A DNA stretch of 64,000 bases from an uncultured virus (IMG/VR IMGVR_UViG_3300008262_000226) (lineage: Duplodnaviria > Heunggongvirae > Uroviricota > Caudoviricetes), in the IMG/VR virus record IMGVR_UViG_3300008262_000226, positions 62,001 through 126,000 of that record; one strand, written 5' to 3'. Below, in pieces: positions 31,724 through 62,004 of this stretch. The stretch's first letter is position 1. Every line of letters starts with the position of its first letter. The translations under genes were made by a program, and so were the position numbers. The notes beneath the pieces are model-generated. The model was not told the DNA's origin. It made no database searches and worked only from the letters and a program-made list of their open reading frames with translations.

Positions 31724-34378
31724 ATGTTGCTACCCGAATTAAATTTACCAGTAGGTTTTGCTGGCAAAGATGGTTTCTATTGGTGGATAGGTCAGATCGA
31801 AACAGATGTAGACAAAAAGTTCTCCAATAGATATAAAGTAAGAATTGTTGGGCAGCATGTTAAGAGTTGCACTGCTGTTTCCGTTGAGGATTTACCTTGG
31901 GCGGTAGTTATGCTGCCTGTAACTGCTCCTTCATCGGAAGGTAATAGTTCATATCATCCAGCAAGATTACAGAAAGGAGATTGGGTAGTAGGTTTCTTTT
32001 TAGATGGTGCTGAAGGTCAACACCCTGTTATCATGGGTAGTTTCCAGAAGGTAACCAAGTCAACAACTAATACATCATTATCAAATAATAATTCTACTGC
32101 AGAGTGTCTGGCATTCACAAGATATGTTCCAGATACTAATCCTAAAATGACTGTTCCAGAAGGCAGTCAGGATGCAACTGCTAGACCAGGAATTAAAAAC
32201 GGAGAAGGATCTGGATCATCAACCATTTTAAATGCTACAAATGATCAGCAATCTGGAACTAATCCACATGGAAGATATGCATGTGTTTTGATTGCAGATC
32301 CTACATGTGAAGATACATCATCATCTCAATCTAAATTTGAGCAAACCCTATCAGAATTTTTTGGAGCAGTTTCTAAAAATGGTGGGCAGTTAGGAACTCA
32401 GATGTTGAGCAGTGTCACTGGAAAACTCTACGATTATACTGGTGCTGCTGGTGGATATATTAGAAGAGTATTTGGATTAGCGAGAACTTATATTAAAGCT
32501 GGAAAGTTTCAACTGCTTGCTTTGATAAAGAAGGGAGTGCAAACTTTAATATCATTCTGTTTAGGAATACCTATCCCAACATCAAATCCTAAAGATGGCA
32601 AAGCAGTTAAATTAAAAAATCAAGGTATATTAAGTAAACTATTCCAGTGGTTGAATGAACAACTCGGATTGATTAATTGTGCCATTGCAGGATTAGAAGA
32701 TAGACTTCTAGATTTTTTAACAAACTTAATTTATGGTTTACTTACGGAAGTTGTATCTGCTGCAACTTGTAAGATAGAACAGATTGTATCTCAAATTATT
32801 AATGAGATTGAAAGTTTTCTTACCGACGCAATAAGTGCAATTCTAGGACCTCTACAAGCTATCTTAGGAATTATTGCTAGCCCACTTAATATCTTGGGAG
32901 CAATTCTACAATACATATTCACACTGTTTGGTATCTCCTGCACAGGACCAGATAAAAAATGTAAGAAACCAGAACAGTCTCAGTTTTGCACTGGAGCTGC
33001 TAATAATAAGAAACCAGGGGAAGATGATTTCGCAGCACTAGATAAATTAATTGCTGATGTTGCTGCAGGTGGTCAAGCAGATTTACAAACAAGTTGCACA
33101 GATTACACTACATTGCCTTGCCCAGCAGTCACAACAGCAAATGTATACGGCGGAGAACCAGGAGACGGTTCTGGTGATCCAGAAACACCACCCCCAGAAG
33201 TAGAAGATCCTTTCGATAATTTCTTTGATTCATTTAATCCGCCAACTGATGACGGTAATAGAGATGGATCAGATGATATTGACGAAGAGGTTGATGCGAT
33301 ACCAGTTAATGCGGCAGTTAATAGCACAGTTGGTTTAAGATTAACTAGCAACTCAAGGTATAGAATTGCATTAGCACAAAGAAGTGATTATACATGGAGG
33401 GGAACTTTAAACATCAACTTATCATCTACTTCTTCTGAAGTTAGAACGCAAGATAGATACGAAGTTGATGTCGTTTCAGTTATACCACAGACAGAGACTA
33501 ATATTATAACATATTCATTGACTGCTGACAAGACAAGAGTTAGACAAAGTGAAACAATTTCATTTACATTAAGATTATTAAGTGGATCTGTTCCAGATGG
33601 AACAGTATTTAATTATTTTATGTTTGGTTTTATTCAAGCATCTGATTTTGCTAATGGAATAAACACAGGAAGAATGACAATGATTGACGGTGTTGCTACT
33701 GCAAACATAACAATCTCTTCACAAATAAGTATAGCAGATGAAGAAGAAGTGCTATTCAGTGTGACAGAAGCTGGTTTGTCTAGGCAGTTTATCATCTACA
33801 ATCAGAATCCCGTAGTAACTACACCAACAGAACCACCTAGATCATTTGTTCCTCCCACTTTAGGAATACCTGAAGTTGATGGGGAGGGTAGGATCATATA
33901 CATACCTATCGTTGACCCAGGAGATCCATATGTAAGACCTCCATTTATTAATATAGCAGGAACTGGTAGTGGTGCTTCTGCTACTGCACTTTTAGATGAT
34001 AGTGGTAGGTTGACGAAGATAAAGATAGAAAGACCTGGAAGGAATTATGTTCCAAACAAATCTAACAAAACTAGTTGTGTAATAGATGGGTTTGTTGTCA
34101 TTAGACCTGGATCTGGATACACATCAGAACCAACTGTAACTGTAAATGGAGAGCAAGGAATTGCCAGAGCAATTATAAGAGATGGATTTGTAGTTGATCT
34201 TGAAGTAATAAATAAGACGAAAACCTATGAAGATTTCCCTGCTGTCAGAGTGTTTGGTGGTGGTGGATCAGGAACCAGAGTTATTTCGTCGCTCTCTTGT
34301 TTAGAAAGAGAAACATACGAAGAGTTTGCATTATCTGTTGCTCCATCTGGAGAAGCACAAGTAATCGATTGCCCATAA
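31724..34378 (+). CDS. Baseplate hub gp5, N-terminal (OB-fold) part
   Basis: GF.WWIGQIE...RYKVRIVG.H...LPWA.V..P...WVVGFFLDG...Q.PVIMG. Confidence 0.88.
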   Translation: MLLPELNLPVGFAGKDGFYWWIGQIETDVDKKFSNRYKVRIVGQHVKSCTAVSVEDLPWAVVMLPVTAPSSEGNSSYHPARLQKGDWVVGFFLDGAEGQHPVIMGSFQKVTKSTTNTSLSNNNSTAECLAFTRYVPDTNPKMTVPEGSQDATARPGIKNGEGSGSSTILNATNDQQSGTNPHGRYACVLIADPTCEDTSSSQSKFEQTLSEFFGAVSKNGGQLGTQMLSSVTGKLYDYTGAAGGYIRRVFGLARTYIKAGKFQLLALIKKGVQTLISFCLGIPIPTSNPKDGKAVKLKNQGILSKLFQWLNEQLGLINCAIAGLEDRLLDFLTNLIYGLLTEVVSAATCKIEQIVSQIINEIESFLTDAISAILGPLQAILGIIASPLNILGAILQYIFTLFGISCTGPDKKCKKPEQSQFCTGAANNKKPGEDDFAALDKLIADVAAGGQADLQTSCTDYTTLPCPAVTTANVYGGEPGDGSGDPETPPPEVEDPFDNFFDSFNPPTDDGNRDGSDDIDEEVDAIPVNAAVNSTVGLRLTSNSRYRIALAQRSDYTWRGTLNINLSSTSSEVRTQDRYEVDVVSVIPQTETNIITYSLTADKTRVRQSETISFTLRLLSGSVPDGTVFNYFMFGFIQASDFANGINTGRMTMIDGVATANITISSQISIADEEEVLFSVTEAGLSRQFIIYNQNPVVTTPTEPPRSFVPPTLGIPEVDGEGRIIYIPIVDPGDPYVRPPFINIAGTGSGASATALLDDSGRLTKIKIERPGRNYVPNKSNKTSCVIDGFVVIRPGSGYTSEPTVTVNGEQGIARAIIRDGFVVDLEVINKTKTYEDFPAVRVFGGGGSGTRVISSLSCLERETYEEFALSVAPSGEAQVIDCP

Positions 34379-34384
34379 AAAATC

Positions 34385-35914
34385 ATGGCAAAAAGTTGGC
34401 TAGAACTACAAGAGAATTTAAGAACTGGAGCGGCAAAACTACCTAACCCAGTTCCTAATAGTAGTTGTGGGGTATCTGAAAATCAAACAGCACAAACAGA
34501 TATACTTGGATTGCCTAATCTAGGTGAACTTACCCAACCAGTTAATGATTTCCTTTCTGGTGTTCAGGGTGAGATAGATCAGTTCGGTGCTGATGTCATG
34601 GGAGTGCTTCAAGATATTGGAGCATTTATTCCACCCGAATTACAGGGATCTGGTGGCAGCAACTCGACAACAGAAGACGGAAAATCTAAAGTTGCGGCTG
34701 TATCAAGTTTAAATCATACCATTCTAGCAAATGGCGAAGTAACAGTAACTGATGGTAGTGATTCTGATACTGGTGATAGTTTTTATTCTATAGTAACTAG
34801 TTCTGGTGGTGGAATAACATTAGATACTGATGGCAGTGTTATTTTAACAGCTGGAAAAAATCCATCTTCAGATCCAAAAACAGGAAGAGTAGATATAATT
34901 GCACAGGGAGCTGGCGTGCAAAAGTATGGTGAGTTTCTTGCCATAGAAGTTAATAATGATAATGAGGCATTGTCAGCGGAAAATCCTTCAGTTAAAGGAG
35001 CTGCATTTTCTATTGTAGTTCATGGAAACGTTGAAATTCAATCAACATCTGGTGATGTTAAAGTAGGTGGAAAAAATATTGTATTTTCTGCATCTGATTC
35101 TATCGAATTAAATGGAGCAGATATTAAATTATATGCTGGATCATCCAGCACAACTACTGGTGGATCTTCTGGTAAAGCGAAAGAAGAACAAGGTGGAATC
35201 ATAGAACTGAAGTGTGGATTATTAAAGAATTCTAGTGCCGCTCAACAAAATATTGAAGGTGGAACATATAACAAGGTAGATGGTGAGAAGTTTATCACCA
35301 CTACTAATTCACAGGGTAACGTGACTATCGAATCCACAGGAACTCTTAATATTAAGAGTGGTGGAGACATGATAGAAGAAATTGGAGGAAGGAAACTTAC
35401 TACCGTATTTGCTGCTCTCCCTGGAGTTAGCTTGGGTGGGGGGTTGATACCACCTAGACCACAAGTATTGGGAGTTTCCGCTGGATATTATATCACAAAT
35501 AAGTATCCTATCATTCCTGCAGGAGGAACCTCAGCAGAAATTCCTCCTCTAGTTCACATTGATTCAAATGTCAGTGCAGGTGGTCATGGATTCACTGTGG
35601 AAGCACCTATGGGCAACATAGGATTATACAGTAGATTTGGTAGCGTTGGTATGGCAACCGATTTTTCTGCTTTTGCTGATATAACTCCACCTGGATTTGT
35701 TGGGGCAACTGTTCCTAAACCATTACTTCAATTAAAATCTCCTGGTGCATACATAACAGCACTCGATAATTTAAGTATGGGTGCAAAAATTAACACCAGT
35801 CTATTCGCTGGTCCTATTCCTACAGGAGGAACACCACCTATCGATGACTCTATCAATATTACTCCTGGAACTATCAGAGTATCTGCATTAAAGGGTGGTA
35901 TTTTCTTAAACTAA
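34385..35914 (+). CDS. gp5 C-terminal-like beta-helix spike protein
   Basis: Repeated V.GNV.I....D....G.NI strands; ends in IFLN. Confidence 0.7.
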   Translation: MAKSWLELQENLRTGAAKLPNPVPNSSCGVSENQTAQTDILGLPNLGELTQPVNDFLSGVQGEIDQFGADVMGVLQDIGAFIPPELQGSGGSNSTTEDGKSKVAAVSSLNHTILANGEVTVTDGSDSDTGDSFYSIVTSSGGGITLDTDGSVILTAGKNPSSDPKTGRVDIIAQGAGVQKYGEFLAIEVNNDNEALSAENPSVKGAAFSIVVHGNVEIQSTSGDVKVGGKNIVFSASDSIELNGADIKLYAGSSSTTTGGSSGKAKEEQGGIIELKCGLLKNSSAAQQNIEGGTYNKVDGEKFITTTNSQGNVTIESTGTLNIKSGGDMIEEIGGRKLTTVFAALPGVSLGGGLIPPRPQVLGVSAGYYITNKYPIIPAGGTSAEIPPLVHIDSNVSAGGHGFTVEAPMGNIGLYSRFGSVGMATDFSAFADITPPGFVGATVPKPLLQLKSPGAYITALDNLSMGAKINTSLFAGPIPTGGTPPIDDSINITPGTIRVSALKGGIFLN

Positions 35915-36053: not shown

Positions 36054-36242
36054 ATGAATCTCCAAAATCCTTCTGAACCAGCTCTTGACAAGATTACGGT
36101 TGACCTCTATAATAAGAAGGTAATCATCCGAGGTGAACATGGAACGACTCTTACCTTTCGATGTGCCACAATTAACGAGTTAGTTGAATTAAAGGAAAAA
36201 TGTGGTAAACTGTTGAAGACAGATAACTTCATTTATCGCTGA
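36054..36242 (+). CDS. Hypothetical protein
   Basis: 62-aa ORF after a TTGACA-N17-TAAACT promoter near 35995. Confidence 0.7.
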   Translation: MNLQNPSEPALDKITVDLYNKKVIIRGEHGTTLTFRCATINELVELKEKCGKLLKTDNFIYR

Positions 36243-36316: not shown

Positions 36317-36345
36317 TTGACAGTCATTACGGCACCTGCTATAAT
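36317..36345 (+). promoter_or_regulatory. Consensus sigma70 promoter upstream of tRNA-Leu and cpeT
   Basis: TTGACA-N17-TATAAT with extended -10 TG. Confidence 0.8.
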
Positions 36346-36359
36346 ACTGTCATCATCAC

Positions 36360-36443
36360 GGGGCGGTGGTGGAATCGGTAGACACACCAGACTTAAAATC
36401 TGTTGGGGGCAACCCCGTGGGAGTTCAAGTCTCCCTCGCCCTA
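36360..36443 (+). tRNA. tRNA-Leu(TAA)
   Basis: Anticodon loop CTTAAAA, long variable arm GGGG-GCAA-CCCC, T-arm GGGAG-TTCAAGT-CTCCC. Confidence 0.92.
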
Positions 36444-36475: not shown

Positions 36476-36742
36476 ATGAAATACACATTATCACAAGCAT
36501 ATGTCTTCTACATGGGAGAAGTTGTGCGAATGTATTTCATACAAAATCTTCCATATACGTTTGATGAGTTACCTCAAATAATCCAAGATCATCCTTCTGT
36601 TCAAACAGAAGCACTTAGTCATCGTGATTATGATGATGAAGATCTTTACAGAGTTTCAAATTATCTTATAATGGAAGAAATGCATCCTTTGATGTTTGAC
36701 TTAGAAATCGAAAATCCTGAATTGTTACCTAAAGATGATTGA
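36476..36742 (+). CDS. Conserved cyanophage hypothetical protein
   Basis: VRMYFI...PYTFDEL...YL..EE.HP. Confidence 0.8.
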   Translation: MKYTLSQAYVFYMGEVVRMYFIQNLPYTFDELPQIIQDHPSVQTEALSHRDYDDEDLYRVSNYLIMEEMHPLMFDLEIENPELLPKDD

Positions 36743-37208
36743 CAAATTTTGTGAATATTTTGAAGGAACATTTGAGAATAAATTGCAAGCAATGTCTTAT
36801 CCGACACAGTTTGCTATGATTGAACTGATTCACGAAAAAATCGATGAAAATCGTTTTCGTTGTATTCAACGTTATTATGTTGATAAAAACGAATATCGTA
36901 GAACAGTTATTGAGGTCATTCCGCAAGAAACTTCAATTCTAGTCAAAAATTATAAAGAAAAAGATGAGTTGACTTATCTTTCTGGGTGTGATATAATGTT
37001 CGAGCAGATAGGTGATGAATTTCACGGCAAAAATCTTTGTAAAACCTGCTTTGTCTCCTGGTCGGGAAAAGAAACCTATCTACAAACACAAAGTATTCTC
37101 GGAAACGGTTACTATCATGTAATTGATAAGGGATACGATATAAATACCGACGAACATATTTGGGGTAGCTTTCACGGGCAATTCCAGTTCGTCAAATCGC
37201 CCTTGTAG
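36735..37208 (+). CDS. cpeT: T-type phycobiliprotein (bilin) lyase, CpcT/CpeT family
   Basis: F..YFEG.F.N..QA...P..FA.I...H, YR, GCD..F, F.G....C, D.G.D......WGS..G.F.F.K. Confidence 0.85.
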   Translation: MIDKFCEYFEGTFENKLQAMSYPTQFAMIELIHEKIDENRFRCIQRYYVDKNEYRRTVIEVIPQETSILVKNYKEKDELTYLSGCDIMFEQIGDEFHGKNLCKTCFVSWSGKETYLQTQSILGNGYYHVIDKGYDINTDEHIWGSFHGQFQFVKSPL

Positions 37209-37270
37209 CTCAGTGGTAGAGCAGCGGTTTTGTAAACCGCTGGTCGTCTGTTCGAATCAGATCGGGGGCT
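37199..37270 (+). tRNA. tRNA-Thr(TGT)
   Basis: Acceptor GCCCTTG/CGGGGGC, anticodon arm GCGGT-TTTGTAA-ACCGC; overlaps the cpeT stop codon. Confidence 0.92.
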
Positions 37271-37290
37271 CTCCGTGTGAAGGAAGTGAT

Positions 37291-37316
37291 ACCTGAGGTT
37301 CGCCTCAGGTTTTTTC
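37291..37316 (+). terminator. Intrinsic terminator followed by a late promoter
   Basis: ACCTGAGG-TTCG-CCTCAGGT-TTTTT, then TATAAATA at about 37318. Confidence 0.8.
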
Positions 37317-37363
37317 TTATAAATAACTCAGAAGAAATCTCCATACTACGGGTTACTGAGAAG

Positions 37364-38134
37364 ATGCCATTAACAAGATTAGATAATCTTATTTCTAGTA
37401 AGACTGGTAAATATCTTTATGTTTCACCTGACGACTTTAATGCTACAGATGCCTTAGATAACAGAGGTAATTCTCCTCTAAGACCATTTGTTAGTATTCA
37501 AAGAGCATTTTTAGAAGCGGCAAGATTCTCGTATCTACCTAATGTAGATAATGACAGGTTTGACCAGTTTACAATCATGCTGTCGCCTGGCAATCACTAT
37601 ATTGATAACCGCCCTGGTGTGGAAGATGTTTCTACTCTTCCAATTTTTCAATTTAATCAGGCAACACAAGAGTGGGAAGCAAATACTAATGTAAGCTTCG
37701 ATCTCTCAGACCCAGATAATATTCTCTACAAGTTCAATGGTCGTGATGGTGGCGCAACCATTCCTAGAGGAACTTCTCTTGTTGGAACAGATCTTCGCAG
37801 AACACAAGTTCGTGCTTTATATGTTCCAGATCCTGCTGATCCAGATGTTCCTCGCACAGCTCTCTTTAATGTAACGGGTGGATGCTATTTCTGGCAGTTT
37901 ACCATTCTAGATGGTGATTTAGAAGCAAGTTCGCCATTATATAATGTTGGATCTCCTGTTGGTGTTGGTAAAGTATACACGCAACCTGGCAGCACTACGA
38001 ATTTAGCAATTCCTGAATTCTCTCACCACAAAATGACAAACTTTGTGTTTGCCGACAGAGAGGATCTAGGTTTACTTTACAGAAAGATTGCTCGTGTATT
38101 CAGTGATTATCAACCAGCAATTGATGACGTATAG
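37364..38134 (+). CDS. Giant virion structural/fibre protein, N-terminal part (ends at a frameshift)
   Basis: MPLTRLDNLISSKTGKYLYVSPDDFNATD...NRGNSP.RPF.SIQRA, a conserved cyanophage N-terminus. Confidence 0.85.
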   Translation: MPLTRLDNLISSKTGKYLYVSPDDFNATDALDNRGNSPLRPFVSIQRAFLEAARFSYLPNVDNDRFDQFTIMLSPGNHYIDNRPGVEDVSTLPIFQFNQATQEWEANTNVSFDLSDPDNILYKFNGRDGGATIPRGTSLVGTDLRRTQVRALYVPDPADPDVPRTALFNVTGGCYFWQFTILDGDLEASSPLYNVGSPVGVGKVYTQPGSTTNLAIPEFSHHKMTNFVFADREDLGLLYRKIARVFSDYQPAIDDV

Positions 38135-41100
38135 CTCCTGATGCAGATGAAACAAAGTGGTCTCGTCTTGTAATTCGTGGTCGTGAATTTGATTTCAGGG
38201 TTCAAGAAAATAGAATCGTTGGTCCTCTTTCTGACGCTGTTAGATTAGATGAGGTAACAATTTTAGATTCTAACCCCGCAGGAACAGTTACTGTTAAAGT
38301 AAGAACAAAAATTAATCATGGTTTCTTCCCTGGTCAATACGTTGCAATTTCCAATAATGGATTGAATACTACACTCAATGGTGTATTCAAAGTAACTGCT
38401 ATCAGTCAAACTGATCCAAAAGAATTCGAATATAAAGTTGCAACCACAGCAACTGGTTTAGGATTGATTAGCGGAACTACTTACACTGCAGTATCTTCTC
38501 CATCACTTGACACTAACGCTACCGTACAGGCGGAGGTAGATAGCGTAGAATCAGCATCTCCATACGTCTTCAACGTTTCGATTCGTTCGACATGGGGTAT
38601 TTGCGGTATTTGGGCTGATGGTCGCAAGGCGACTGGTTTCAAATCCATGGTTATCGCCCAGTATACTGGTGTTTCGCTACAGAAAGACGACAGAGCATTC
38701 ATTCGTTACGACGAATTCAGCAACACATGGAACCAGGCACCACTAACTGATGCGTTTGCTACAACTCCTTATCACATCAAGGGAGATGCATATTGGAAGG
38801 ATGATTGGAGAAACTTCCACGTTCGTGCTTCAGATGACTCCTTCATTCAGAACGTTTCGATCTTCGCGGTAGGTTTTGCTGATCACTTCCTGCTTGAGTC
38901 AGGTGGTGACATGTCTATCACCAACTCGAACTCAAACTTTGGTAACACTTCGATGCACTCGAAGGGATACAAAGGTTTTGCATTCTCGCAAGATAAAGGC
39001 GGATACATCACTCATATTGTTCCACCAAAATCTCTTTCTACTCTAAAAAATATTAAGCAACAGTATTATGTTCTGGATGCTCAATTAACTAGAGCTACTT
39101 CTAATCAAAATAGATTATATTTTGGATCTGATGATGCTCGTAGCGCAGAAGATCGCCCAGCAGCATCGATTGGTGGGTATAGAATTGGTGCAAGAAGAAA
39201 TGAAAAATTATTTGTAAAACTAGATACTTCTGCTGCTAAGCAAGCAGAACTTTCTCCATCTGGGTTTAAGAGATGGGTTTCTTCTCTATCCACAATTTCT
39301 CCAACTGGTTCTAGATCTGTAGAAGATATAAGTCGTTTGTATGTAACTAGCACTGTTGGATTTGCTTCAAATGATTTTGTTAAAGTTGATAACGAATTTT
39401 TCAGAATTACTGCAGTTAATCCTTCTAGTTTAAATGTAGTAAGAGCACAATTGTCATCTGCAGCATCTGATCATGTTAATGCATCTATTGTTACAAAATA
39501 TATTCAAAACGCTGTAGCGACTACTGTTCTTAATGAAGAAGTTGATGCTACTGAGACAGTATTTGACGTTCAGAGCACTACTGGTCTTGCTCCAAATATG
39601 TTTGCTAGTATTACTAATAGTCAAACATCTATTAATGAAACAGTTAGAATTGTAACTATTGAGGGTGCTAGTCAAATTACAGTTCAGAGGGGTCAGTTAG
39701 GAACTATTGCTGTTGCTCAACCACAGACATCTTTAGTTACTCTAACAACACTTTCAAATACATATTCTCCTGCTTCTCCTAGTGTAACAACAACTCTCAC
39801 TGAGAGATATCCAAGAATTACTCCTGCATCAAATGCATCAGAAAGAGATTATAATCTTGCACAAGATGCTGCGAATCTAATTGATTCAAATAAAACATTC
39901 ATTCAAGCAGAAGCATTTGGATATGTTTTACAGAAATATCCATATCTTCAAAATATTTCTTATGTAAACCCAAATATCACTGCGGAAACTGGTAGATATC
40001 GTGATGCCAGCAATTTGATTAAAGCAAATCGCCAAGAAATTATTGATTATGCTTTCACTCAAATGCAAGTTGCATTCCCTTCATTCGTTGTTCCAAACAA
40101 TGAAAATGATAAGTGTAAGCGTGATATTGGATATATTGTAGATGCAATCGCAAACGATTTATATGATGGTGGAAATGCAAGCATCATTGAGGCAACCAAA
40201 GCATATTTTGACAATAACGGATCTTTAATTACAAATGGTGTTTTGGGTGAGCAAACTCAATCGGTATTTGCTTTCAATAGAGCAAGAGATTGGGCTAAGA
40301 AAGCAATTTCAAACCTTCTAGGAAATACTTCTCTACTTGATGTAATTAGTATCACTTCATCTGGAACAACTGTCACCGTAACGACAGGAAATCCACATAA
40401 TTTAGAAGCAGGTAATAAAGTAACAGTTGGCGGTGCAACTCAAACTGCATATAATGGAAAAGTAACTGTTCTTGCTTCTGGATTAACTGCTACCCAATTT
40501 AGATACACTGCATTATCTGCTCCTTCTGCGTCACCAGCTACTGGTGCATATTATGTTTCGACTGTAACTATTGATCCATCTAATGATTCTATTGTTGCTG
40601 GTAGATATAAGGATGCGAGCAACTTAGTTAAATCAAATCGTCAAGAAATTATTGATAGAGCTGCAGCTAAAGTTGCTATTGATTTTCCTGATTTTTATTA
40701 TCCAGGTGATAGTCAATCAAATGCAACTTCTCGTTTTAAGGATTCGTATCGTCTAATTCAACAAAACAGACAAGAAATTATTGATAGAGCAGCTGCCGAA
40801 ATCGCTGTTCAGCATCCAGATTTTTATTATCCAAATGATGCTCAAACTACAAGCACATCGAGATATAAAGATGCTTATCGTTTGATCCAATTAAATAGAC
40901 AAGAAATTATTAATGGAGCTTATGCTCAAATTGCTATTGATTATCCTGGATTTACAAATCCAAATCCAACAAAGTGTCAAAGAGACATTGGATATTTTAT
41001 TGATGCAATTTCTCTTGATATTTCAATTGGATCTGGTAATGTTTATTCGCGCAAGTTCACTCAGCAGTATTTTACTGTTAGTGGAGCTCCAATTAGTGAT

Positions 41101-44100
41101 GGATTACTAGGAGAAGAAACACAATCGATTGCTGCATTTAATAAAGCTCGTGATTTGATGAAATCGGCAATCACAAATCAATTAACGGTAAAAGATTTAA
41201 CTGTTACTGTAGATCCTATTACTGGTTCTAATACAAATGTAAATTCTTGTTCTAATGTTCAACTTGCAATTACTAACTTAAGCGCAATTGTTACAAATGC
41301 TATTGGTGCTGGTAGTATTTCTGGTTTACCACCTGAAAATGTAGGAACTGTTCCTGCTGGAGAAACAAAATGCAAGAGAGATATTGGCATGTTTATTGAT
41401 GCTATTTCTCTTGATATTGTTCAGGGAGGTGGTAATGTTTATGCGCGTAAATTCATTCAACAGTATTTTAATCAGGCAGGAACTGCTTGGATAACTGGCG
41501 GATTACAAGGTGAAGAAGCTCAGTCTGTAACTGCATTTAACAAAGCAAGAGATATAATGAAACTTGCTGTAGCAAACCAGTTATATGTAAAAGATCTTTC
41601 TATTACTGCTGATCCTGCTCCTGGTTCTAATTATGGAACTTCTGGATCTAATACTGATAATAATTTAAATCCTGCTCTATGTTCAGATGTTCAAAATGCA
41701 ATTACAACTTTAACTTCTATTGTTACTGCTAGAGTAACTGCTGGAAATCTTACTGGATTACCTGCAGAAACACAAGCAACCATTCCAAATGGAGAAGCTA
41801 AGTGTAAGCGCGACATTGGTTATATTGTAGATTCTATTGCCCAAGATTTATTCTGGGGTGGAAATGAATTTACTGTTGGTGCAGTAAGAGAATATTTTAC
41901 TCTAGCAGGTGTTCCTATTTCTAATGGATTAGTTAATGAAGAGAGTCAAACAGTAGTTGCTTTTAATGCTGCAAAAGATGTTGTTAAAAAAGCAGTTACA
42001 AATCAACTTTATTCTAAAAATTTAAATCTTTCTTATGGTCCAGCAAATGCTGGTGGATCGGGTGGAAATGTAACATACAATGCATCTGGTAATGGTGCTA
42101 CTTGCGTAGATGTTCAGACCACAGTAGAAAACTTATTTGCAATTGCTACTAGTGTTGTAGCGTCTGGAACTTTAGCAAATCTTCCTCCAGTAACTAATGG
42201 ATCTTACGATTGTGCTAATGTTAGAAATAGTATAGATACATTAACTGCAATTTTAACAACTGCGTTAGCATCAGGAAATCTATCTTCTTTACCTGAAGAG
42301 AATCCAGGATCATGGAGCACAGTTAGTGAGAGTAGTAAGTGTAAGCGTGATATTGGATATATTGTAGAGGCAGTTACTTCTGATCTACGTTTGGGTGGAA
42401 ATGAAAATACTATCAACGCAGCAGAAGCATACTATACAGCTGTTCCTCTCAACACTGACACTGTAGACGGAAGACAAGATGGATTTACTCTAGATTATAT
42501 TGAAAATGAGAGACCAGAAACTCTAGATGCATACAACTATGTAAGAAATTTGGCTATCTCAGCAATGAGAAACCACAATACTTATATCAATAATGCTTCC
42601 ACTACTTTAAATTCTCCAATCGTTACAGTTCCAAGCACAATTGGTCTTGCTATTGGAATGCGTGTTAGAAGTGTCAATGCTATTCCAACAGGTCCTTCTG
42701 ATACAGTATCATTTACTTCTACTATTCCAGATACAGCATACATCAAAAAAATTGGTGATGGTCAAAATGGATTGGCATCGAATCAAATAGAATTAGGAAG
42801 ACTAGGAAGCAGATTTGATGATGGAGAAACTGTAAGTGCTCAGGGAACATCGTCTACTGTAAAATTATACGTTGAATTAAATCAAGGATCTTGGGCAACA
42901 ACAATTGCTCCTTCAACCGATAGCGCAGTTATTCAAGATTATAATTACACGGCTGCTGGCGATCCTTCAACTGGATCTCCAGGAGGAGAGTGCGCTACTG
43001 TTGCTAATTCAATTGTTAATTATTTCAATATTATTTCAACAATTATCAACAATGGTGTTGGTGTTGTTCCTAGAGTTGCTTCTTCTCTTAACACAGCATC
43101 CCTCGCTCAAAGAGGATCTCTATTCACTTTAACTGAATATGATAGCAATGGAAATCCAACATCAAACCCCCACCAGTTAGAAACTGGAACTCCAGTAAGA
43201 CTTGTTCCATCTCCTAGACCAGGAACTAATCCAGACAAGAGACTGGTTAGACTTCCAAAAGGATTTGATACAAATACTATTTACTATGTAATTGCTCCTG
43301 GCAGAAGAACAGATCCTTTTGATTATTCTAATTCTATCGGATTTAATGGCGCAAATCAGCAAACATTGATGCTTGCTACTAGTGAAGAGAATGCTGCCGC
43401 AGGTATTTACATTTATTCTTCCGAGACTGATAGTGTAGATCCAGATGTAAATATTGATGTTTATCAGTATGTTCTAGATCTTAAGTATGATCTACATCAA
43501 TATGAAACTAAAATTGCTAATAATAGCAGCACCGAATTTGAAACCACTAGACCACATATTTTTGACAAACCAGCTGATGGAGTTGAACCTCAGTTAGTGT
43601 TCTTTAGAGTTGGAAGTGATATTATTGGATCATCGTTGCCTACTCTATCTTCTAATTTTGGTGGAACTGTTATTTCAGAAAAGCAACAGTATTATGTTCG
43701 TTATGTAAGTTCCAGAAGATTTACGATTCACCAAACATTTACTGATGCTAGAGATAATATTAATCCTGTAACTTTCCAACCAGGAAGCACCGCAGTATTC
43801 TACGCATTTGCTAGCAAGAGAAGATCTCCTCTCAAATATGATCCTGTTGTAGGTGGTGCAAATGATGGTTGCTGGTATTTAAACACCTTAACTGCAGGAA
43901 ATGAAATTGTTCCTAGATTGAAGTTTAGTGATTATGCAGGAAGAATCAGAACAACTGATACTTACTTTGAACGTATTGAAGATAATAGAACGGAAGATGA
44001 TCGTGTATATAGATTCCGTTATGTAATTCCTAAGAATCTTAAAACCGTTCGTGATCCTCTACGTGGATTTGTGTTTAAGATTAGAACAGATGAAAAGAGA

Positions 44101-47100
44101 AGATTGCTCCCCCAGAAAATATTACTGAAACCAACTGCATCTGGTTCTTCACTTGCCACAATTAATGCTCCTGTCACTGGTGAAAGACTAGGTTTAACTG
44201 TATCTGAACTATACAGTCAAACTGGTAAAGATTCTACTTACGATCCAGGTCCTCAGGGTAATCCTAAGAGAATCGAAACAGATTCTAAGATTTCTTTCAC
44301 AGTTCAATCTGCCAGAAAGAGAACTATTCAAAATAGAGATTATTTAGAATTAACTGTATTTGATATTGGTGTAGATGCCGAAGCATATAAGACTAAACTC
44401 TTCACAACGGTTAAAATTTCTGCTCCTGAGGGTGGAGATGGATCCTTTATTGAAAGTATTCCAAATTCTAATAACACAAATAAAATTACTTGGGATGGTA
44501 ATAGCAAGGGAACTGCATATGTTCACGCATATTTTTCTTATGAAAACGATTACTACATGATTCTTAAGGATCTCACTGGTAATTCTGAAATTAAGTATGA
44601 TAGTAATACAGTTACTACCTTTACTCAAGGATCTGTAACTGCTACTTTACTTGATCAACCAAATGGCGGAAGATCTGACATTTCTAATTTCCTTTATGTT
44701 GTGGAAGGAGCAAACGTTTACACTATGACTCCTGGCGACACTTTAAATGATGATCAAGGAGTGTCGTATACAATTGCTGAAGTAGAAGATTCTTCTGAAC
44801 TTGAAAGCACTTTCTACATTTTTGATATTGATACTATCCGTAGAAGAATTGCTGGTCAACAAGATGGTGTGTATTATCTCACATGTTTACGTGGAGATAT
44901 TAGACCTTTCCCAACTGGTTCTGGTGTTGGTGAAAACTTCAGAAACTTCAGATTCTCTCAACCAGTATCTAAGTTATATCCAGAATTCTATAAGAACGAC
45001 CCAGAATGGTATAAGGGAATAAGTGCAGCAACTGCCACGTTACTTGATCCACCACCAACAATTTCTGCGGCAGACAACTATATCCATGGTTTAGTTACGG
45101 TTAATGATTCCAAAGGATCTGTAACTAGAGAAACCGTTCTTGATTTTGTTGCTGATCCTGGAACAGGAAATTATACATATTCTGGAAATAATACAATTCA
45201 AGCTCAACCAGGATCAGCTTCTGCTGGATCTGAAGGCAGATTGATTCCTATTTCTGGCGATTCTCCATATCCAACAGAAGGAAAACTTTATATAGAACTT
45301 CGTAGACCATCTATTGCGCGTTCTGGCAACCATACCTTTGAATACCTTGGTTTCGGTCCTGGTAACTACTCAACTGGTTTCCCTGCGCGTCAGGAAGTGG
45401 TCTTAACTGATGTTCAAGACTTCTATGCTCAAGCTAAGCGTGAAGACGCTGGTATCGTCTTCTACACGGGTCTGAACTCCAATGGTGACCTCTACATTGG
45501 TAATCGCAAGATCAATGCTATTACTGGTGAAGAAACATTCCTAGAAAGAGCGGCATTAGTTGAATCTGAGGATGAAGGAGATAGTATTGGCAATCTTGTA
45601 ACTACTTTTGATACTCCAGTTACATTTAATCAAATCATCACAATTAATGGTGGTGATGGATCTGATGAAAGTTTCTTCAATTCTCCAGTTGTAATTAATA
45701 ATGCAACTTCTTTCGGAACGGTAGAAAATTATCCTTCACTTAAGATTGTTACTGGAGAAGGAACTCCTGTTGGATTTGATCAGTATTTAGAATATAATAC
45801 TGTTGGTCAAAGAACAGGTGATATCGTCATTCATCAAAACAGAATTACTGCAGCTGTATTTGATTTCAATCCAAGAGGAACACAAGATTATACTATTAGA
45901 ACTTCCATATCAAATATCACTCCAGATTTTAACAATACATTTGGGCAAACTACAGGATTTACTTCTCAAATTTTAGCAACTAATTTTGGAACTAGAGATC
46001 CGTTGAAGTCAGGTGATATGCTATTGAAGGGAGATCAAACTTCCTTTACTGGATCGTTAGGTTGGATATATGCTAATGATTACATTGCTATAACTAACAG
46101 ATCTGATGGTCAAACAACACCTCAAGTTGTAGGTATTCAGGGTAATGCTACTGGAACATTTGCTAGAATTAACTGGAATACTGGTATTAATAATGGTTCT
46201 CTAAGTATTAATAGTTCTACTCAAATTAGAATTACTAATGCTACTGGAACATTAGCAGTTACAAATGGTGTTTGGAATATTGTTCCAGGAAGTTTTAACG
46301 CTTCTAACAATTATATTGATGTTATTCTGAACTCTAATCTTTCTGTGTATCCAGTTAATCTTAATAATGGTAAAGGATACCCAGTTGATCAAGTAGCACA
46401 ACCAAATATTGCAATCGCTCGTTCGTCTTCTCAATTTAAGGAGTGGGGTGTTCTAGGTGCAGAAGCAATTAGAACAGAAACTTCTTCGATTGGAAATTAC
46501 AAGTTAGGTATTAATACCGTTGCTCGTTCTCCACATTCTGCATATCTGACAGCATTTGTTTCTCCAGAAACAACGCCAAGAGCAAATCTTGATGTTGTCG
46601 GTAATGCATTTATCAGTGGTAAGGCAATTAATTCTTATTTAACTGAGCAAACATCTACGAAGACAGAAACTAATTTAGACAATGCTTTGGTTGTTGGTGG
46701 CAATAGTTTGAGTCTAAATGGTCCTGCTACATTCCGTGTTCAGACAACGAATAATGGTAGAGTAGGAATTAATACTTCTCTAGTTGATGTCGTAAATCCA
46801 TCCAACGTTCTTGATAGAAATTTTGTAGTTGTAGGTAATGCTAGAATTACTTCAGATTTTGAATTAACAGGTGACCTTCAAGTTAATGGTGGTGATTTAA
46901 CTACAACTTCTCCATCTTTCAATTTATTAAATACTTCTTCTCCAGACATTTTAAACTTTGCTGGTGGTGCAGAAATATTTAATATTGGTCACACGACAAC
47001 TGGAGCTCAAACAATTAATGTCGGCAATGCTGCTTCATCTAGTTATATTCAAGTTGGTAACGTTGCTACAGAATCTGTTTTCAGAATTCATAGAAATTCA

Positions 47101-49380
47101 TTAAACGCAATTGTTGATATTGCTTCCGTTGCTGATACTGTTGGTAATAGTTGTGAAGTTCAAATTGGCGGAGCATGGAACAATACTGCTAGCTTCACTG
47201 AAATACGCACCAGACAAACATTAATTGCTGGAGAATTAGAATTTGGAACTAGGTATGCTTCTGGAACTAGTCAGTCTAGAATTTTCACTCAGACTAGAGT
47301 TCTGAATGCATTTGATGGTGATCAAACCAATACAGTTAATCTTGCTACTAATGCAACTACCTTCAACCTCGGATCTCTTGGTGGTAATACTACCATTAGA
47401 AATACTCTTAATGTTCTTGCAAGTGAAAACGTTAATGGTAATATTAGACTGAATGGTGGATTAAATGCAGGTATTGTTGAAATTGTAAGAGGAAGATTCT
47501 CTACAACACCAGTCGCACACAACGTAGGAAATCTCGCAAACACCAACATTGATTATTATCAGTATAATACAACTGGTAGAATAATTGATACTCAAGGTGT
47601 TGCACAATGGGGAGGAACTTCGTTCTTGGTTGCTGGTGGTCAAATTGCTGGTATTGATACTATTACAAATACTGGCGGAACAAATAGAAATCCTGGAACA
47701 TATAGTTTCATTCCAGCAACAGGTGGAACTGGAACGGGTGCTACATTTACTATTAGCATTGCTAACGATAAAACTCTTAATATTGATATTGTTAGCCCTG
47801 GATCTGGATATACTGATAATGACCTATTAATAATTACTGCTGCACAAATTGGTGGTGGAACTGGTGCTGGCAATCTTACATTCCAAGTAAATGGTGTAAA
47901 TGCTGGTGGATCTAGCTATTATCTACCAATTTCTACTCCTGGTGTGTTTGATTTCAGAGTTGGTGATCTTATTCTCATAGATCGTGGTGATGCAGCAACA
48001 CCAGATAGTGTTGTTGTTTCTGGTGGTGGAAGCATTACTGGATTAAGAAATCAAGCAAACAGTGAGATTGTTCGTGTTACTGGATTAACAAACTTAAGTA
48101 ATCCAAATGATCCAGAAGGTTTCCGAGTTCAAGTTATTCGTGGTCAGGAAGGAACACAGGTAAGAACAGATCACCCACAAGGTTGTGTGCTTGCTAAATT
48201 AATTAAACAAACAAATGCAAGTTATATTACAGGATCTGATCTTAATAATGATGGAGTTTTAGATACACCTGTGACGGGTATTTCAAATTCCTCTGTCAAT
48301 GTTAATATTGGTGTTGCTGAATTTGGTGGAGTTCTTACTACCAGAGACTTCTTGAGATTATCTGGTTCAGAAATCGTTGGTATTGCTAGAACGGTATCCA
48401 CTGATATTCAAGTTCTTGAAGTTAACGATGGATCTTTAACACCCGCTACAGTATTCAAAGTAGAATCTACTACTGGTAATACAATTATTGGTGGTAATCT
48501 TGGGGTTGGAACTGGATTTAATAAATTTACAGTTACTGGATCATCTGGAAACACTAATATTGCTGGAACATTAACAACAGAGAACACATTAACTATTAAT
48601 GGATCTACTATTCCTAATACTCAATTCTTTACTATTACTAACGGTGGTGCTACAGGAACTCCATTGAGAACTACATTCCAGATTGATACTGCGAATGGTA
48701 ATGTTAGAATGAATGGTGGAAACATCAACATCTATGGAACTGATGGAACAACACCTAGACTAACGTTTGTCAATTCTTCGGGTGACTTTACCACATATGG
48801 TTCTTTCTCTGCTCTTGGAACGGGTGCTAGCACTTTTGGTGGTGATATTGTTGCTGCAGGTGATTTAACAATTAATGGTGGTGATATCACTGTTAATTCT
48901 GGAGGTAATCCTATTTTTGAGGTAAATAGTAATGGTTCTATGCGTATTGCTGGAATCAATAATTACTTTACTCAAACGGGTGGTAGAAGATGGGAGTATG
49001 CCGATGGATTTGTCATTAATGCTTTGGCAAACGTTAATTATTTTGTTAATGCTACACAAAATACGCTATTTAAACTTCCTCAAAATGCTCTAATTGGTGA
49101 TATGATTCGTATTATAGATATTGGTGGAAACTTAAATTATAATTTAAGTTTGATTGTAAGAGCTCCTGACAACGTAAAAGTTCAGAACGCATCTGATAAT
49201 ACTGCAAGAAATATTGCTTCTGGTATTCCAGTTTCTGATTTTGTTGGATATAATGGTGGTGAAATGGTTGTTCAAACTCCATACGCTGCATTTGCACTAG
49301 TTTTTGCAGGATCTACAACTCCAGATGGCAACACTGCTGTTCCATCATCTATCGCTGGTTGGTATTTAATCGAAGTCTAA
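38131..49380 (+). CDS. Giant virion structural/fibre protein, remainder; contains five nested phycobiliprotein-like domains
   Basis: Frame open from 38128 (IAPDADETKW...EFDFRVQENRIVGPLSD) into the 3672-aa ORF; ends GWYLIEV. Confidence 0.85.
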   Translation: MAPDADETKWSRLVIRGREFDFRVQENRIVGPLSDAVRLDEVTILDSNPAGTVTVKVRTKINHGFFPGQYVAISNNGLNTTLNGVFKVTAISQTDPKEFEYKVATTATGLGLISGTTYTAVSSPSLDTNATVQAEVDSVESASPYVFNVSIRSTWGICGIWADGRKATGFKSMVIAQYTGVSLQKDDRAFIRYDEFSNTWNQAPLTDAFATTPYHIKGDAYWKDDWRNFHVRASDDSFIQNVSIFAVGFADHFLLESGGDMSITNSNSNFGNTSMHSKGYKGFAFSQDKGGYITHIVPPKSLSTLKNIKQQYYVLDAQLTRATSNQNRLYFGSDDARSAEDRPAASIGGYRIGARRNEKLFVKLDTSAAKQAELSPSGFKRWVSSLSTISPTGSRSVEDISRLYVTSTVGFASNDFVKVDNEFFRITAVNPSSLNVVRAQLSSAASDHVNASIVTKYIQNAVATTVLNEEVDATETVFDVQSTTGLAPNMFASITNSQTSINETVRIVTIEGASQITVQRGQLGTIAVAQPQTSLVTLTTLSNTYSPASPSVTTTLTERYPRITPASNASERDYNLAQDAANLIDSNKTFIQAEAFGYVLQKYPYLQNISYVNPNITAETGRYRDASNLIKANRQEIIDYAFTQMQVAFPSFVVPNNENDKCKRDIGYIVDAIANDLYDGGNASIIEATKAYFDNNGSLITNGVLGEQTQSVFAFNRARDWAKKAISNLLGNTSLLDVISITSSGTTVTVTTGNPHNLEAGNKVTVGGATQTAYNGKVTVLASGLTATQFRYTALSAPSASPATGAYYVSTVTIDPSNDSIVAGRYKDASNLVKSNRQEIIDRAAAKVAIDFPDFYYPGDSQSNATSRFKDSYRLIQQNRQEIIDRAAAEIAVQHPDFYYPNDAQTTSTSRYKDAYRLIQLNRQEIINGAYAQIAIDYPGFTNPNPTKCQRDIGYFIDAISLDISIGSGNVYSRKFTQQYFTVSGAPISDGLLGEETQSIAAFNKARDLMKSAITNQLTVKDLTVTVDPITGSNTNVNSCSNVQLAITNLSAIVTNAIGAGSISGLPPENVGTVPAGETKCKRDIGMFIDAISLDIVQGGGNVYARKFIQQYFNQAGTAWITGGLQGEEAQSVTAFNKARDIMKLAVANQLYVKDLSITADPAPGSNYGTSGSNTDNNLNPALCSDVQNAITTLTSIVTARVTAGNLTGLPAETQATIPNGEAKCKRDIGYIVDSIAQDLFWGGNEFTVGAVREYFTLAGVPISNGLVNEESQTVVAFNAAKDVVKKAVTNQLYSKNLNLSYGPANAGGSGGNVTYNASGNGATCVDVQTTVENLFAIATSVVASGTLANLPPVTNGSYDCANVRNSIDTLTAILTTALASGNLSSLPEENPGSWSTVSESSKCKRDIGYIVEAVTSDLRLGGNENTINAAEAYYTAVPLNTDTVDGRQDGFTLDYIENERPETLDAYNYVRNLAISAMRNHNTYINNASTTLNSPIVTVPSTIGLAIGMRVRSVNAIPTGPSDTVSFTSTIPDTAYIKKIGDGQNGLASNQIELGRLGSRFDDGETVSAQGTSSTVKLYVELNQGSWATTIAPSTDSAVIQDYNYTAAGDPSTGSPGGECATVANSIVNYFNIISTIINNGVGVVPRVASSLNTASLAQRGSLFTLTEYDSNGNPTSNPHQLETGTPVRLVPSPRPGTNPDKRLVRLPKGFDTNTIYYVIAPGRRTDPFDYSNSIGFNGANQQTLMLATSEENAAAGIYIYSSETDSVDPDVNIDVYQYVLDLKYDLHQYETKIANNSSTEFETTRPHIFDKPADGVEPQLVFFRVGSDIIGSSLPTLSSNFGGTVISEKQQYYVRYVSSRRFTIHQTFTDARDNINPVTFQPGSTAVFYAFASKRRSPLKYDPVVGGANDGCWYLNTLTAGNEIVPRLKFSDYAGRIRTTDTYFERIEDNRTEDDRVYRFRYVIPKNLKTVRDPLRGFVFKIRTDEKRRLLPQKILLKPTASGSSLATINAPVTGERLGLTVSELYSQTGKDSTYDPGPQGNPKRIETDSKISFTVQSARKRTIQNRDYLELTVFDIGVDAEAYKTKLFTTVKISAPEGGDGSFIESIPNSNNTNKITWDGNSKGTAYVHAYFSYENDYYMILKDLTGNSEIKYDSNTVTTFTQGSVTATLLDQPNGGRSDISNFLYVVEGANVYTMTPGDTLNDDQGVSYTIAEVEDSSELESTFYIFDIDTIRRRIAGQQDGVYYLTCLRGDIRPFPTGSGVGENFRNFRFSQPVSKLYPEFYKNDPEWYKGISAATATLLDPPPTISAADNYIHGLVTVNDSKGSVTRETVLDFVADPGTGNYTYSGNNTIQAQPGSASAGSEGRLIPISGDSPYPTEGKLYIELRRPSIARSGNHTFEYLGFGPGNYSTGFPARQEVVLTDVQDFYAQAKREDAGIVFYTGLNSNGDLYIGNRKINAITGEETFLERAALVESEDEGDSIGNLVTTFDTPVTFNQIITINGGDGSDESFFNSPVVINNATSFGTVENYPSLKIVTGEGTPVGFDQYLEYNTVGQRTGDIVIHQNRITAAVFDFNPRGTQDYTIRTSISNITPDFNNTFGQTTGFTSQILATNFGTRDPLKSGDMLLKGDQTSFTGSLGWIYANDYIAITNRSDGQTTPQVVGIQGNATGTFARINWNTGINNGSLSINSSTQIRITNATGTLAVTNGVWNIVPGSFNASNNYIDVILNSNLSVYPVNLNNGKGYPVDQVAQPNIAIARSSSQFKEWGVLGAEAIRTETSSIGNYKLGINTVARSPHSAYLTAFVSPETTPRANLDVVGNAFISGKAINSYLTEQTSTKTETNLDNALVVGGNSLSLNGPATFRVQTTNNGRVGINTSLVDVVNPSNVLDRNFVVVGNARITSDFELTGDLQVNGGDLTTTSPSFNLLNTSSPDILNFAGGAEIFNIGHTTTGAQTINVGNAASSSYIQVGNVATESVFRIHRNSLNAIVDIASVADTVGNSCEVQIGGAWNNTASFTEIRTRQTLIAGELEFGTRYASGTSQSRIFTQTRVLNAFDGDQTNTVNLATNATTFNLGSLGGNTTIRNTLNVLASENVNGNIRLNGGLNAGIVEIVRGRFSTTPVAHNVGNLANTNIDYYQYNTTGRIIDTQGVAQWGGTSFLVAGGQIAGIDTITNTGGTNRNPGTYSFIPATGGTGTGATFTISIANDKTLNIDIVSPGSGYTDNDLLIITAAQIGGGTGAGNLTFQVNGVNAGGSSYYLPISTPGVFDFRVGDLILIDRGDAATPDSVVVSGGGSITGLRNQANSEIVRVTGLTNLSNPNDPEGFRVQVIRGQEGTQVRTDHPQGCVLAKLIKQTNASYITGSDLNNDGVLDTPVTGISNSSVNVNIGVAEFGGVLTTRDFLRLSGSEIVGIARTVSTDIQVLEVNDGSLTPATVFKVESTTGNTIIGGNLGVGTGFNKFTVTGSSGNTNIAGTLTTENTLTINGSTIPNTQFFTITNGGATGTPLRTTFQIDTANGNVRMNGGNINIYGTDGTTPRLTFVNSSGDFTTYGSFSALGTGASTFGGDIVAAGDLTINGGDITVNSGGNPIFEVNSNGSMRIAGINNYFTQTGGRRWEYADGFVINALANVNYFVNATQNTLFKLPQNALIGDMIRIIDIGGNLNYNLSLIVRAPDNVKVQNASDNTARNIASGIPVSDFVGYNGGEMVVQTPYAAFALVFAGSTTPDGNTAVPSSIAGWYLIEV
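39865..43060 (+). repeat. Five nested phycobiliprotein-like repeats (segments A, B, C)
   Basis: 5x DA..LI..N...I....A......P; 5x KC(K/Q)RDIG; 5x C..V...I..L..I. Confidence 0.8.
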
Positions 49381-53241: not shown

Positions 53242-53242
53242 A

Positions 53243-61662: not shown

Positions 61663-62004
61663 ATGAAACAGGATTACGAAGTATTATACTTTCAAAATTT
61701 CATAGAAGAATCTGTAAAATCTTTAGGTAAACCTGCAATTTACCTCAGATCTTATGGGTGGAACAACAGCACAGACATTCAGAAAATCAATGATTCAATG
61801 GATGTTTATAGATCCATGCTTCCAGTTGACATGTTTAATGCACTTCATGATTCTGAATTTGTTTTTCTTTTACTAGAAGATATGGAGGAAGCAATTCAAT
61901 TTTGTGAAGATACATTTCCAAAAGATCAAGCAAGTTGTGAGAAAGAATTTTATATTCATTGCTCGATAATCAACGAGCAGGGTCAAACGATATATTCAAA
62001 TTAA
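61663..62004 (+). CDS. Hypothetical protein
   Basis: 113-aa ORF in the operon. Confidence 0.75.
   Translation: MKQDYEVLYFQNFIEESVKSLGKPAIYLRSYGWNNSTDIQKINDSMDVYRSMLPVDMFNALHDSEFVFLLLEDMEEAIQFCEDTFPKDQASCEKEFYIHCSIINEQGQTIYSN

Follow-up and report, generated by a model that had tools for sequence, protein, structure and literature searches.

Beta-type phycobiliprotein domains in the giant fiber protein of a cyanomyovirus that also encodes a T-type lyase homolog

The giant fiber gene of a T4-like cyanomyovirus carries repeated units that are almost certainly true phycobiliprotein domains of the beta type, with two conserved cysteine sites, and it is located close to cpeT, a homolog of the T-type phycobiliprotein lyases. 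Both genes lie in a stretch of 64,000 nucleotides (positions 62,001 to 126,000 of the IMG/VR record IMGVR_UViG_3300008262_000226), which is referred to here as the window and to which coordinates belong unless another source is named. Because five units with both cysteines intact adjoin the gene of a T-type lyase, the virus particle may carry a light-absorbing pigment. A covalently bound bilin on these domains is predicted and is considered probable. The joint proposal, that the virion domains bear bilin and that CpeT serves their beta-155-like site, is put forward tentatively. The features on which this account depends are the following.

37366-38134, + strand: N-terminal part of the fiber gene (phrog_4527 at 1.6e-135, also phrog_529)
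38135-49380, + strand: remainder of the fiber gene (phrog_4527 'short tail fiber protein', E 0, 4048 bits)
39949-43110, + strand: phycobiliprotein-like region, fiber codons 530-1583
40837-41307, + strand: unit 2, the only contiguous, complete domain (helices A, B, E, F, G, H)
40114-40116 (unit 1), 40975, 41371, 41803 and 42340, + strand: Cys-82/84-equivalent codons, aligned by phmmer/hmmsearch
41248-41250 (unit 2), 41680, 42103, 42211 and 42991, + strand: beta-153/155-equivalent Cys codons, assigned by position
36735-37208, + strand: cpeT, 157 amino acids, T-type phycobiliprotein lyase homolog

Five units in the fiber region score above the Pfam Phycobilisome threshold, and the fiber protein belongs to that family (PF00502; 46.4 bits, cut-off 22.2, E 5.4e-12). 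Each of the 41 PDB sequences matched at E<=1 is a phycobiliprotein or derives from one, and both phmmer and hmmsearch with a 68-sequence profile align the KC.RDIGY stretch with the Cys-84 motif of C-phycocyanin alpha chains. The identity of the units to antenna proteins is 11-18%. An AlphaFold (AF2) model of residues 826-1135 of the fiber open reading frame (ORF) reached a predicted local distance difference test score (pLDDT) of 88.1 and a predicted template modeling score (pTM) of 0.81, and within it unit 2 shows helices A, B, E, F, G and H of the globin-like fold. When the model was compared with PDB by Foldseek, all 48 matches listed were phycobiliproteins, at weak E-values of 0.03-0.16. 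VIA-align gave Z scores of 15.6-17.5 and root-mean-square deviations of 1.9-3.2 A over 130-142 residues in the 50 rows listed, 49 of which are phycobiliprotein entries, nearly all of the beta type; the top row is labeled 'bacterial fluorescent protein'. In these rows, residues 1-157 of the model pair with the chains from residue 24-33 to the C terminus. Since the alignments start only at chain residues 24-33, the N-terminal X-Y hairpin is absent; what comes before each unit is a loop or another unit. Antenna subunits pair through this hairpin.

The units are unequal in their composition. Four A/B hairpins were placed by the motif map at fiber-ORF residues 545, 748, 791 and 834, five E-F-G cores have their cysteines at residues 585, 872, 1004, 1148 and 1327, and five elements made of a cysteine plus helix H are found at residues 963, 1107, 1248, 1284 and 1544. 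An AF2 model of the whole region (pLDDT 72.7) has the same helix order and gives no contacts; it includes beta-rich inserts, one behind unit 1 and one within unit 5. Three of the A/B hairpins follow one another ahead of unit 2, at 40594-40956 of the window, and units 3-5 are without contiguous A/B helices of their own.

All five copies of the motif C.RD[IVLM]G, at the Cys-82/84-equivalent positions listed above, are in the fiber frame, and the six frames of the window contain no further copy; of 20,000 shuffles of the fiber protein, just 11 had even one. The initial annotation had likened five C-segment cysteines of the fiber to the beta-155 site of phycobiliprotein beta subunits. The structural part of that proposal stands and extends further, in that the units match the beta-type fold. 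By range arithmetic, the second set of five cysteines fits beta-153/155, and the cysteine of the KCxRDIG motif marks the other attachment site, Cys-82/84. T-type lyases serve the beta-153/155 site, and Cys-82/84 is not their site. In the unit 2 model, Cys47 (codon at 40975) corresponds to the Cys-82/84 site and is followed by the Arg-86 and Asp-87 of the motif. Cys138 (codon at 41248) stands one residue before helix H (model residues 139-158), where Cys-153/155 would be expected by position, and 19 residues before model residue 157, whose partner is residue 172 in phycocyanin beta and residue 177 in phycoerythrin beta; Cys138 therefore falls on 153 or 158 if helix H is ungapped. This corresponds to the beta-153/155 site of T-type lyases. 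A near-invariant aspartate, Asp12 of the model, maps to beta-39 (model residue 6 pairs with chain residue 33), and the beta-153/155 and beta-39 mappings are both range arithmetic that assumes ungapped helices, not a residue-level structural alignment. The aspartate at beta-39 presumably contacts the beta-155 bilin, so that there would be a conserved aspartate at a position contacting each bilin.

A single-unit profile was run over 91 IMG/VR loci and the named-phage loci, yielding 604 domain hits, 474 of them distinct, and conservation was counted among the rows covering each column. The Cys84 equivalent is kept in 325 of 332 distinct copies and the Cys155 equivalent in 255 of 266, with both cysteines kept in 211 of 227. 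The associated residues behave similarly (Arg86 equivalent, 294/331; Asp87 equivalent, 329/331; Asp39 equivalent, 279/286). Thus each attachment cysteine is kept in 96-98% of the covering copies, and cysteines and partner aspartates together in 96-99%, at an average of about 41% identity per column in the unit alignment. Within the fiber protein of the window, 10 of the 15 cysteines lie between residues 585 and 1544, and the other five are spread over about 2,700 residues.

The product of cpeT is a member of the Pfam CpeT family (PF06206, E 1.1e-23, 84.5 bits, cut-off 21) and matches phrog_488 at 5e-39. A profile of 19 phage CpeT sequences, from the window and 18 relatives, matches the CpcT of Nostoc (4o4o) at E 4.8e-37 over positions 2-172 of 174 and the P-HM1 protein (5hi8) at 1.4e-19. 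Seven residues (Y54, R55, C85, C105, D131, W143, G144) are invariant among the 19 and identical in CpcT; the Tyr-Arg pair, the Cys pair and the Asp are, we assume, the residues reported as important in CpcT. The clade of the window CpeT shares 34-46% identity with most phage CpeTs. In the complete genome of the same phage (192,732 bp, direct terminal repeats, 100% complete), searches for a bilin reductase, a haem oxygenase and an S-type lyase found none, so cpeT is the only bilin gene of this phage. Its assignment as the putative lyase of the beta-155-like site is doubtful enough that we offer it as a possibility. Two related IMG/VR contigs have a further CpeT-like match, covering only profile positions 8-75, at about 53.5 kb, some 39 kb from the main cpeT.

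The distribution of cpeT and the domain among phages was examined next to the sequence evidence. A tblastn search recovered 311 phage records for cpeT and 293 for the domain, and the two sets divide among organism names in nearly the same way; for the tail protein at 30091-31503 there were 232 records, fewer than for cpeT. Profiles for CpeT and for the domain were used to score 25 complete cyanomyovirus genomes. Nine of them were chosen for a reason (P-HM1; P-SSM2, S-SM2 and S-SSM7; four with domain hits; S-CRM01), P-SSM2, S-SM2 and S-SSM7 being without cpeT in a table of Sullivan et al. (2010). The other 16 were taken blind, as distinct names of unknown status from the 'spread' listing, leaving out S-BM1, MC09, KBS-M-1A, Syn33, S-H25, RN05-S, ACG-2014h, Sf-CH3 and the non-cyanophage Melnitz. 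The 25 genomes fall into these classes.

cpeT and domain (10 genomes): P-HM1, S-WAM1, S-SZBM1, Syn30, S-RIM8, S-RIM12, ACG-2014f, S-8S29, S-CAM7, S-SSM4
cpeT only (0 genomes): none among the 25
domain only (5 genomes): B23, DSL-LC03, S-SKS1, S-T4, S-RIM14
neither (10 genomes): P-SSM2, S-SM2, S-SSM7, S-CRM01, S-SRM01, S-CAM9, S-H34, SynMITS9220M01, Bellamy, RB11-B

None of the 10 cpeT-bearing genomes is without the domain. Among the blind 16, seven have both, none cpeT only, three the domain only and six neither (one-sided Fisher's exact test, P = 120/11440 = 0.0105). Of the IMG/VR contigs with the domain, 21 of 35 have cpeT somewhere, including all four of those that are at least 88% complete. 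When loci were anchored on cpeT instead, the domain was found downstream in 12 of 13, and the 13th ends 1.4 kb after cpeT. Seventeen phage names are common to the best 60 of the 311 cpeT records and the best 60 of the 293 domain records, and in 16 of these phages the domain is about 0.5-5 kb downstream of cpeT (about 65 kb in S-SCSM2R); both lists favor the relatives of the window phage, because they are ranked by likeness to the window.

A pathway that accommodates these observations can be proposed. The domain units would be chromophorylated inside the infected cell, with CpeT serving their beta-153/155-like cysteines and with the Cys-82/84-like sites filled from the host bilin pool, either by host lyases of the S/U type or autocatalytically. 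Phages with the domain and without cpeT would rely on the T-type lyase of the host itself. The virion would then bear covalently bound bilin on its adsorption apparatus. A complex prediction for CpeT and unit 2 scored 0.00 against a mark of 0.32, which counts neither way.

The phages P-HM1 and P-HM2, isolated on Prochlorococcus MED4, carry both cpeT and the domains, and the P-HM1 domains keep both cysteines. CpeB is the only phycobiliprotein of this host and has a single site, Cys82, according to a preprint (bioRxiv 10.1101/2020.03.31.018853). In MED4 infections, the only beta-155-like sites that could be identified are phage-encoded. The CpeT of P-HM1, in work attributed to Gasper and colleagues in 2017, reportedly binds phycoerythrobilin tightly with no transfer to host CpeB. 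A possible lead concerns the role of light in adsorption. Liu et al. (2019; PMC6628666) found no dark adsorption for P-HM1 and P-HM2 but did find it for P-SSM2 and P-SSP7, and in their paper the light-dependent adsorption of S-PM2 is described as independent of host photosynthesis, with host receptors and/or tail fibers named as the possible cause. The light-dependent S-PM2, P-HM1 and P-HM2 carry the domain, and the dark-adsorbing P-SSM2 and P-SSP7 are without it. Domain status thus fits adsorption in all five phages with published adsorption data that could be scored, which represent at most three independent lineages. That bilin-bearing baseplate and fiber domains act as a virion photoreceptor gating adsorption by light, with cpeT as a virion-maturation enzyme and not a host-antenna gene, is in our judgment unlikely. 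If true, it would account both for the cyanomyoviruses whose adsorption requires light but not host photosynthesis and for the presence of a T-type lyase in phages of hosts without a beta-155 site.

Several observations weigh against CpeT as the enzyme of the virion domains. The co-occurrence, which the initial annotation had proposed as a check, proves one-sided: the rule that cpeT is accompanied by the domain holds, but 5 of the 15 domain-bearing genomes are without cpeT, and two of them, B23 and DSL-LC03, keep the Cys155 equivalent. On a single tree of a tail protein (16 rows), cpeT changes four times and the domain three times; in one or two of the three independent pairs the domain changes in step with cpeT, in none does it change contrary to it, and with only three such pairs significance is out of reach of the sign test (P at least 0.5). 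Synteny of the two, expected under the same annotation, does not hold generally. Each of the 10 genomes among the 25 that have both carries the domain about 30-125 kb from cpeT in giant ORFs, either gp7-like or other, and cpeT keeps its slot beside the gp5/tRNA region wherever the domain sits. In P-HM1, the domain-bearing ORFs are annotated as gp7 'baseplate wedge initiator' and as 'YapH protein', and cpeT is just upstream of other fiber genes that are without the phycobiliprotein-like domain. In eight IMG/VR loci, the reading frame orf88, which otherwise precedes cpeT, is followed directly by a fiber gene with both cysteine motifs and no cpeT is found in the slot. The adjacency of cpeT and the fiber gene is lineage-specific. 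In the window itself, the two genes look like separate transcription units, judging from the promoter-like and terminator-like motifs described below. Synechococcus hosts, moreover, have beta-155 sites of their own, which are possible targets of cpeT.

These same observations could be explained if the domains carry bilin received from host lyases or by autocatalysis, and cpeT is directed at the host, as a lyase of the host beta-155 site or as a bilin buffer, its place beside the fiber gene being due to chance in a gp5/tRNA hot spot. The separate transcription units, the constant position of cpeT in spite of a domain 30-125 kb distant in many lineages, and the cysteine-bearing domains in five genomes and eight loci without cpeT in the slot are all in line with this explanation. 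ApcE attaches its bilin autocatalytically, and a bilin-pool role for phage CpeT was reportedly proposed by Gasper and colleagues in 2017. A region near gp5 and the tRNAs is called a hot spot by Sullivan et al. (2010). A cpeT directed purely at the host does not readily account for the 10 cpeT-bearing complete genomes that all have the domain, nor for the MED4 phages, which carry cpeT though the host protein, as described in the preprint cited above, has no beta-155 site. We consider this explanation rather unlikely.

Another explanation dispenses with bilin on the virion. The units could be structural or adhesive modules derived from a captured phycobiliprotein gene, their cysteines serving folding or another role, with cpeT directed at the host and the co-occurrence reflecting shared ancestry or host type. 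This could well be so, although we would put it below an even chance. The units do depart from the antenna design: with no X-Y hairpin, and with units 3-5 lacking contiguous A/B helices, they are not canonical antenna subunits. Furthermore, reports of pigmented virions were not found in the open-access literature, and the co-occurrence of cpeT and domain is not significant once phylogeny is allowed for. The pattern of conservation is harder to reconcile with bilin-free modules, as 96-99% of the 474 diverged copies, at about 40% identity, retain the cysteines and partner aspartates, and cysteine is otherwise rare in the fiber protein of the window. The two sites are also distinct by their position in the beta fold, one being early in helix E and the other before helix H. 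The two attachment sites of the beta fold presumably lie far apart, and an intradomain disulfide is therefore unlikely.

If the domains carry bilin, a chromophore of the photosynthetic antenna would be placed on the host-recognition machinery of a virus. The cpeT gene, present in 311 phage records and described as having an unresolved role by Sullivan et al. (2010), would gain a substrate, and an 'auxiliary metabolic gene' would be recast as a structural-maturation gene, with consequences for the tally of such genes in viromes from oceans and lakes. Should the domains prove to be apo, the host antenna fold has still been recruited repeatedly into baseplate proteins of 4,000-7,000 residues (293 phage records), a striking domain capture that current annotations leave unnamed. 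Consistently, a precomputed PF00502 match is present on most of the 120 relatives listed, all of which are called 'hypothetical protein' where they are named. Neither these 120 nor the 23 BFVD matches at E<=0.001, which bear names such as tail protein and structural protein, have phycobiliprotein in their names. A description of phycobiliprotein-like virion domains was not found in the open-access literature, with subscription journals and supplements outside the scope of that search.

In the window the fiber gene is split into two ORFs, 37277-38134 and 38362-49380, the second frame being open already from about 38131. The split is due to a clean 122-bp deletion after 38133 that is peculiar to the window record. 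In the complete genome of the phage, all 13,379 other bases compared are identical and the fiber gene is a single frame of 4093 codons, and the undeleted form is present in contigs of four of four public runs, with a bridging contig that has the extra 117-122 letters or so. The fiber gene is intact in nature. A one-nucleotide frameshift and an intron were both considered for the break and are ruled out by the clean deletion relative to the complete genome. The missing piece (about 41 residues) presumably resembles a small motif of the carbohydrate-binding type. Taken over both ORFs, the fiber matches the phrog_4527 profile at full length and is a member of that group. Outside the window, at about 127.6-128.5 kb of the complete genome, a second ORF of 2723 codons has two matches to the phycobiliprotein-like domain.

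The genes around cpeT are arranged in the order gp5-like genes, tRNA-Met, tRNA-Leu, the 88-amino-acid ORF (orf88), cpeT, tRNA-Thr, hairpin and giant fiber gene, and 3' of the fiber gene there are further fiber-like, collar and virion proteins up to 59100. The neighboring features are listed here.

8268-9350: psbA, 27.4 kb upstream of cpeT
31724-34378 and 34385-35914: gp5-like baseplate hub genes
36317-36345, + strand: sigma-70-type promoter-like site between tRNA-Met and tRNA-Leu (TTGACA, 17 nt, TATAAT, with TG; 12/12 consensus)
36360-36443, + strand: tRNA-Leu (taa), by ARAGORN
36476-36742, + strand: orf88, overlapping cpeT by 8 nt; phrog_4134 (function unknown) at 3.2e-42
37199-37271, + strand: tRNA-Thr (tgt), by ARAGORN, overlapping the end of cpeT
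37291-37310, + strand: terminator-like hairpin and T run, 8-pair stem with 5 GC pairs
37318-37325, + strand: TATAAATA, T4-type late-promoter-like motif, 41 nt before the fiber ATG

The layout agrees with what had been noted at the outset, namely that cpeT is parted from the giant fiber gene by a tRNA and a terminator and that psbA is more than 27 kb away. The suggestion that orf88 might be a third component of the system was not borne out: orf88 is directly upstream of cpeT in 50 of 50 loci with cpeT, but it also adjoins the fiber gene in eight loci without cpeT, it has no Pfam match, and its Atlas scores (0.75-0.77) are too low to count as a lead. In two IMG/VR loci an orf88-like match lies at about 20.0-20.5 kb, some 9 kb downstream of the domain-bearing gene and not upstream of it.

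Promoters and terminators were called by consensus match only. The positions of the sigma-70-type site, the hairpin and TATAAATA are the reason why cpeT and the fiber gene look like separate transcription units, and the site at 36317-36345 is a possible start of a unit comprising tRNA-Leu, orf88, cpeT and tRNA-Thr. The small-gene and tRNA island before cpeT holds two perfect (12/12) sites of this type, at 36085-36113 and 36317-36345, which may mark early transcription of cpeT by the host polymerase. The late-promoter core HTAAATA is not enriched in the window (60 found, 64 expected), and its placements before orf88 and the fiber gene are thus weak hints.

The window is part of the genome of a T4-like cyanomyovirus. 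Among named phages, S-H9-1, S-PM2 and S-CAM1 come closest to it at the DNA level, with about 81-83% identity in short stretches. The window is present in 20 DNA runs of lake and freshwater metagenomes from 10 studies; as all 20 are of this kind, the phage is a freshwater phage, a relative of the mostly marine S-PM2-like phages. RNA runs with the window were absent among the 24 runs listed, which says nothing on expression. Elsewhere in the window, a run of five tRNA genes (His, Thr, Gln, Trp, Arg) without any spacer occupies 24-395, a 903-amino-acid ORF without a PHROG match at E<=1e-5 lies among the baseplate genes at 27376-30087, and three neighboring paralogous virion structural proteins at 51532-56141 have a common C-terminal module (phrog_2155 plus phrog_9770).

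Among known systems, the closest to the phage units are the beta subunits of phycobiliproteins (CpcB, CpeB, cryptophyte beta; PF00502), with which they share the globin-like fold of helices A-H (Z up to 17.5), the Cys-82/84 motif with its Arg and Asp and, by range arithmetic, a cysteine at beta-153/155 and an aspartate at beta-39. Unlike those subunits, the phage units have no X-Y hairpin and no alpha partner gene, they are arrayed in tandem inside a virion protein of about 4,000 residues, and units 3-5 are without contiguous A/B helices. ApcE, the core-membrane linker, presumably offers a parallel as another case of a phycobiliprotein fold used as a module of a giant polypeptide. Bilin attachment in ApcE needs no lyase, which makes it a model for the Cys-82/84-like sites; it differs in being a cellular protein of the phycobilisome core that holds its bilin at a different cysteine. 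The phage CpeTs match the CpcT of Nostoc (4o4o) over its full length, and the substrate of the window CpeT is putative. Giant proteins of other T4-like cyanophages (phrog_4527, phrog_701) are likewise comparable, the same domain being found in gp7-like proteins of P-HM1, S-WAM1 and S-SZBM1.

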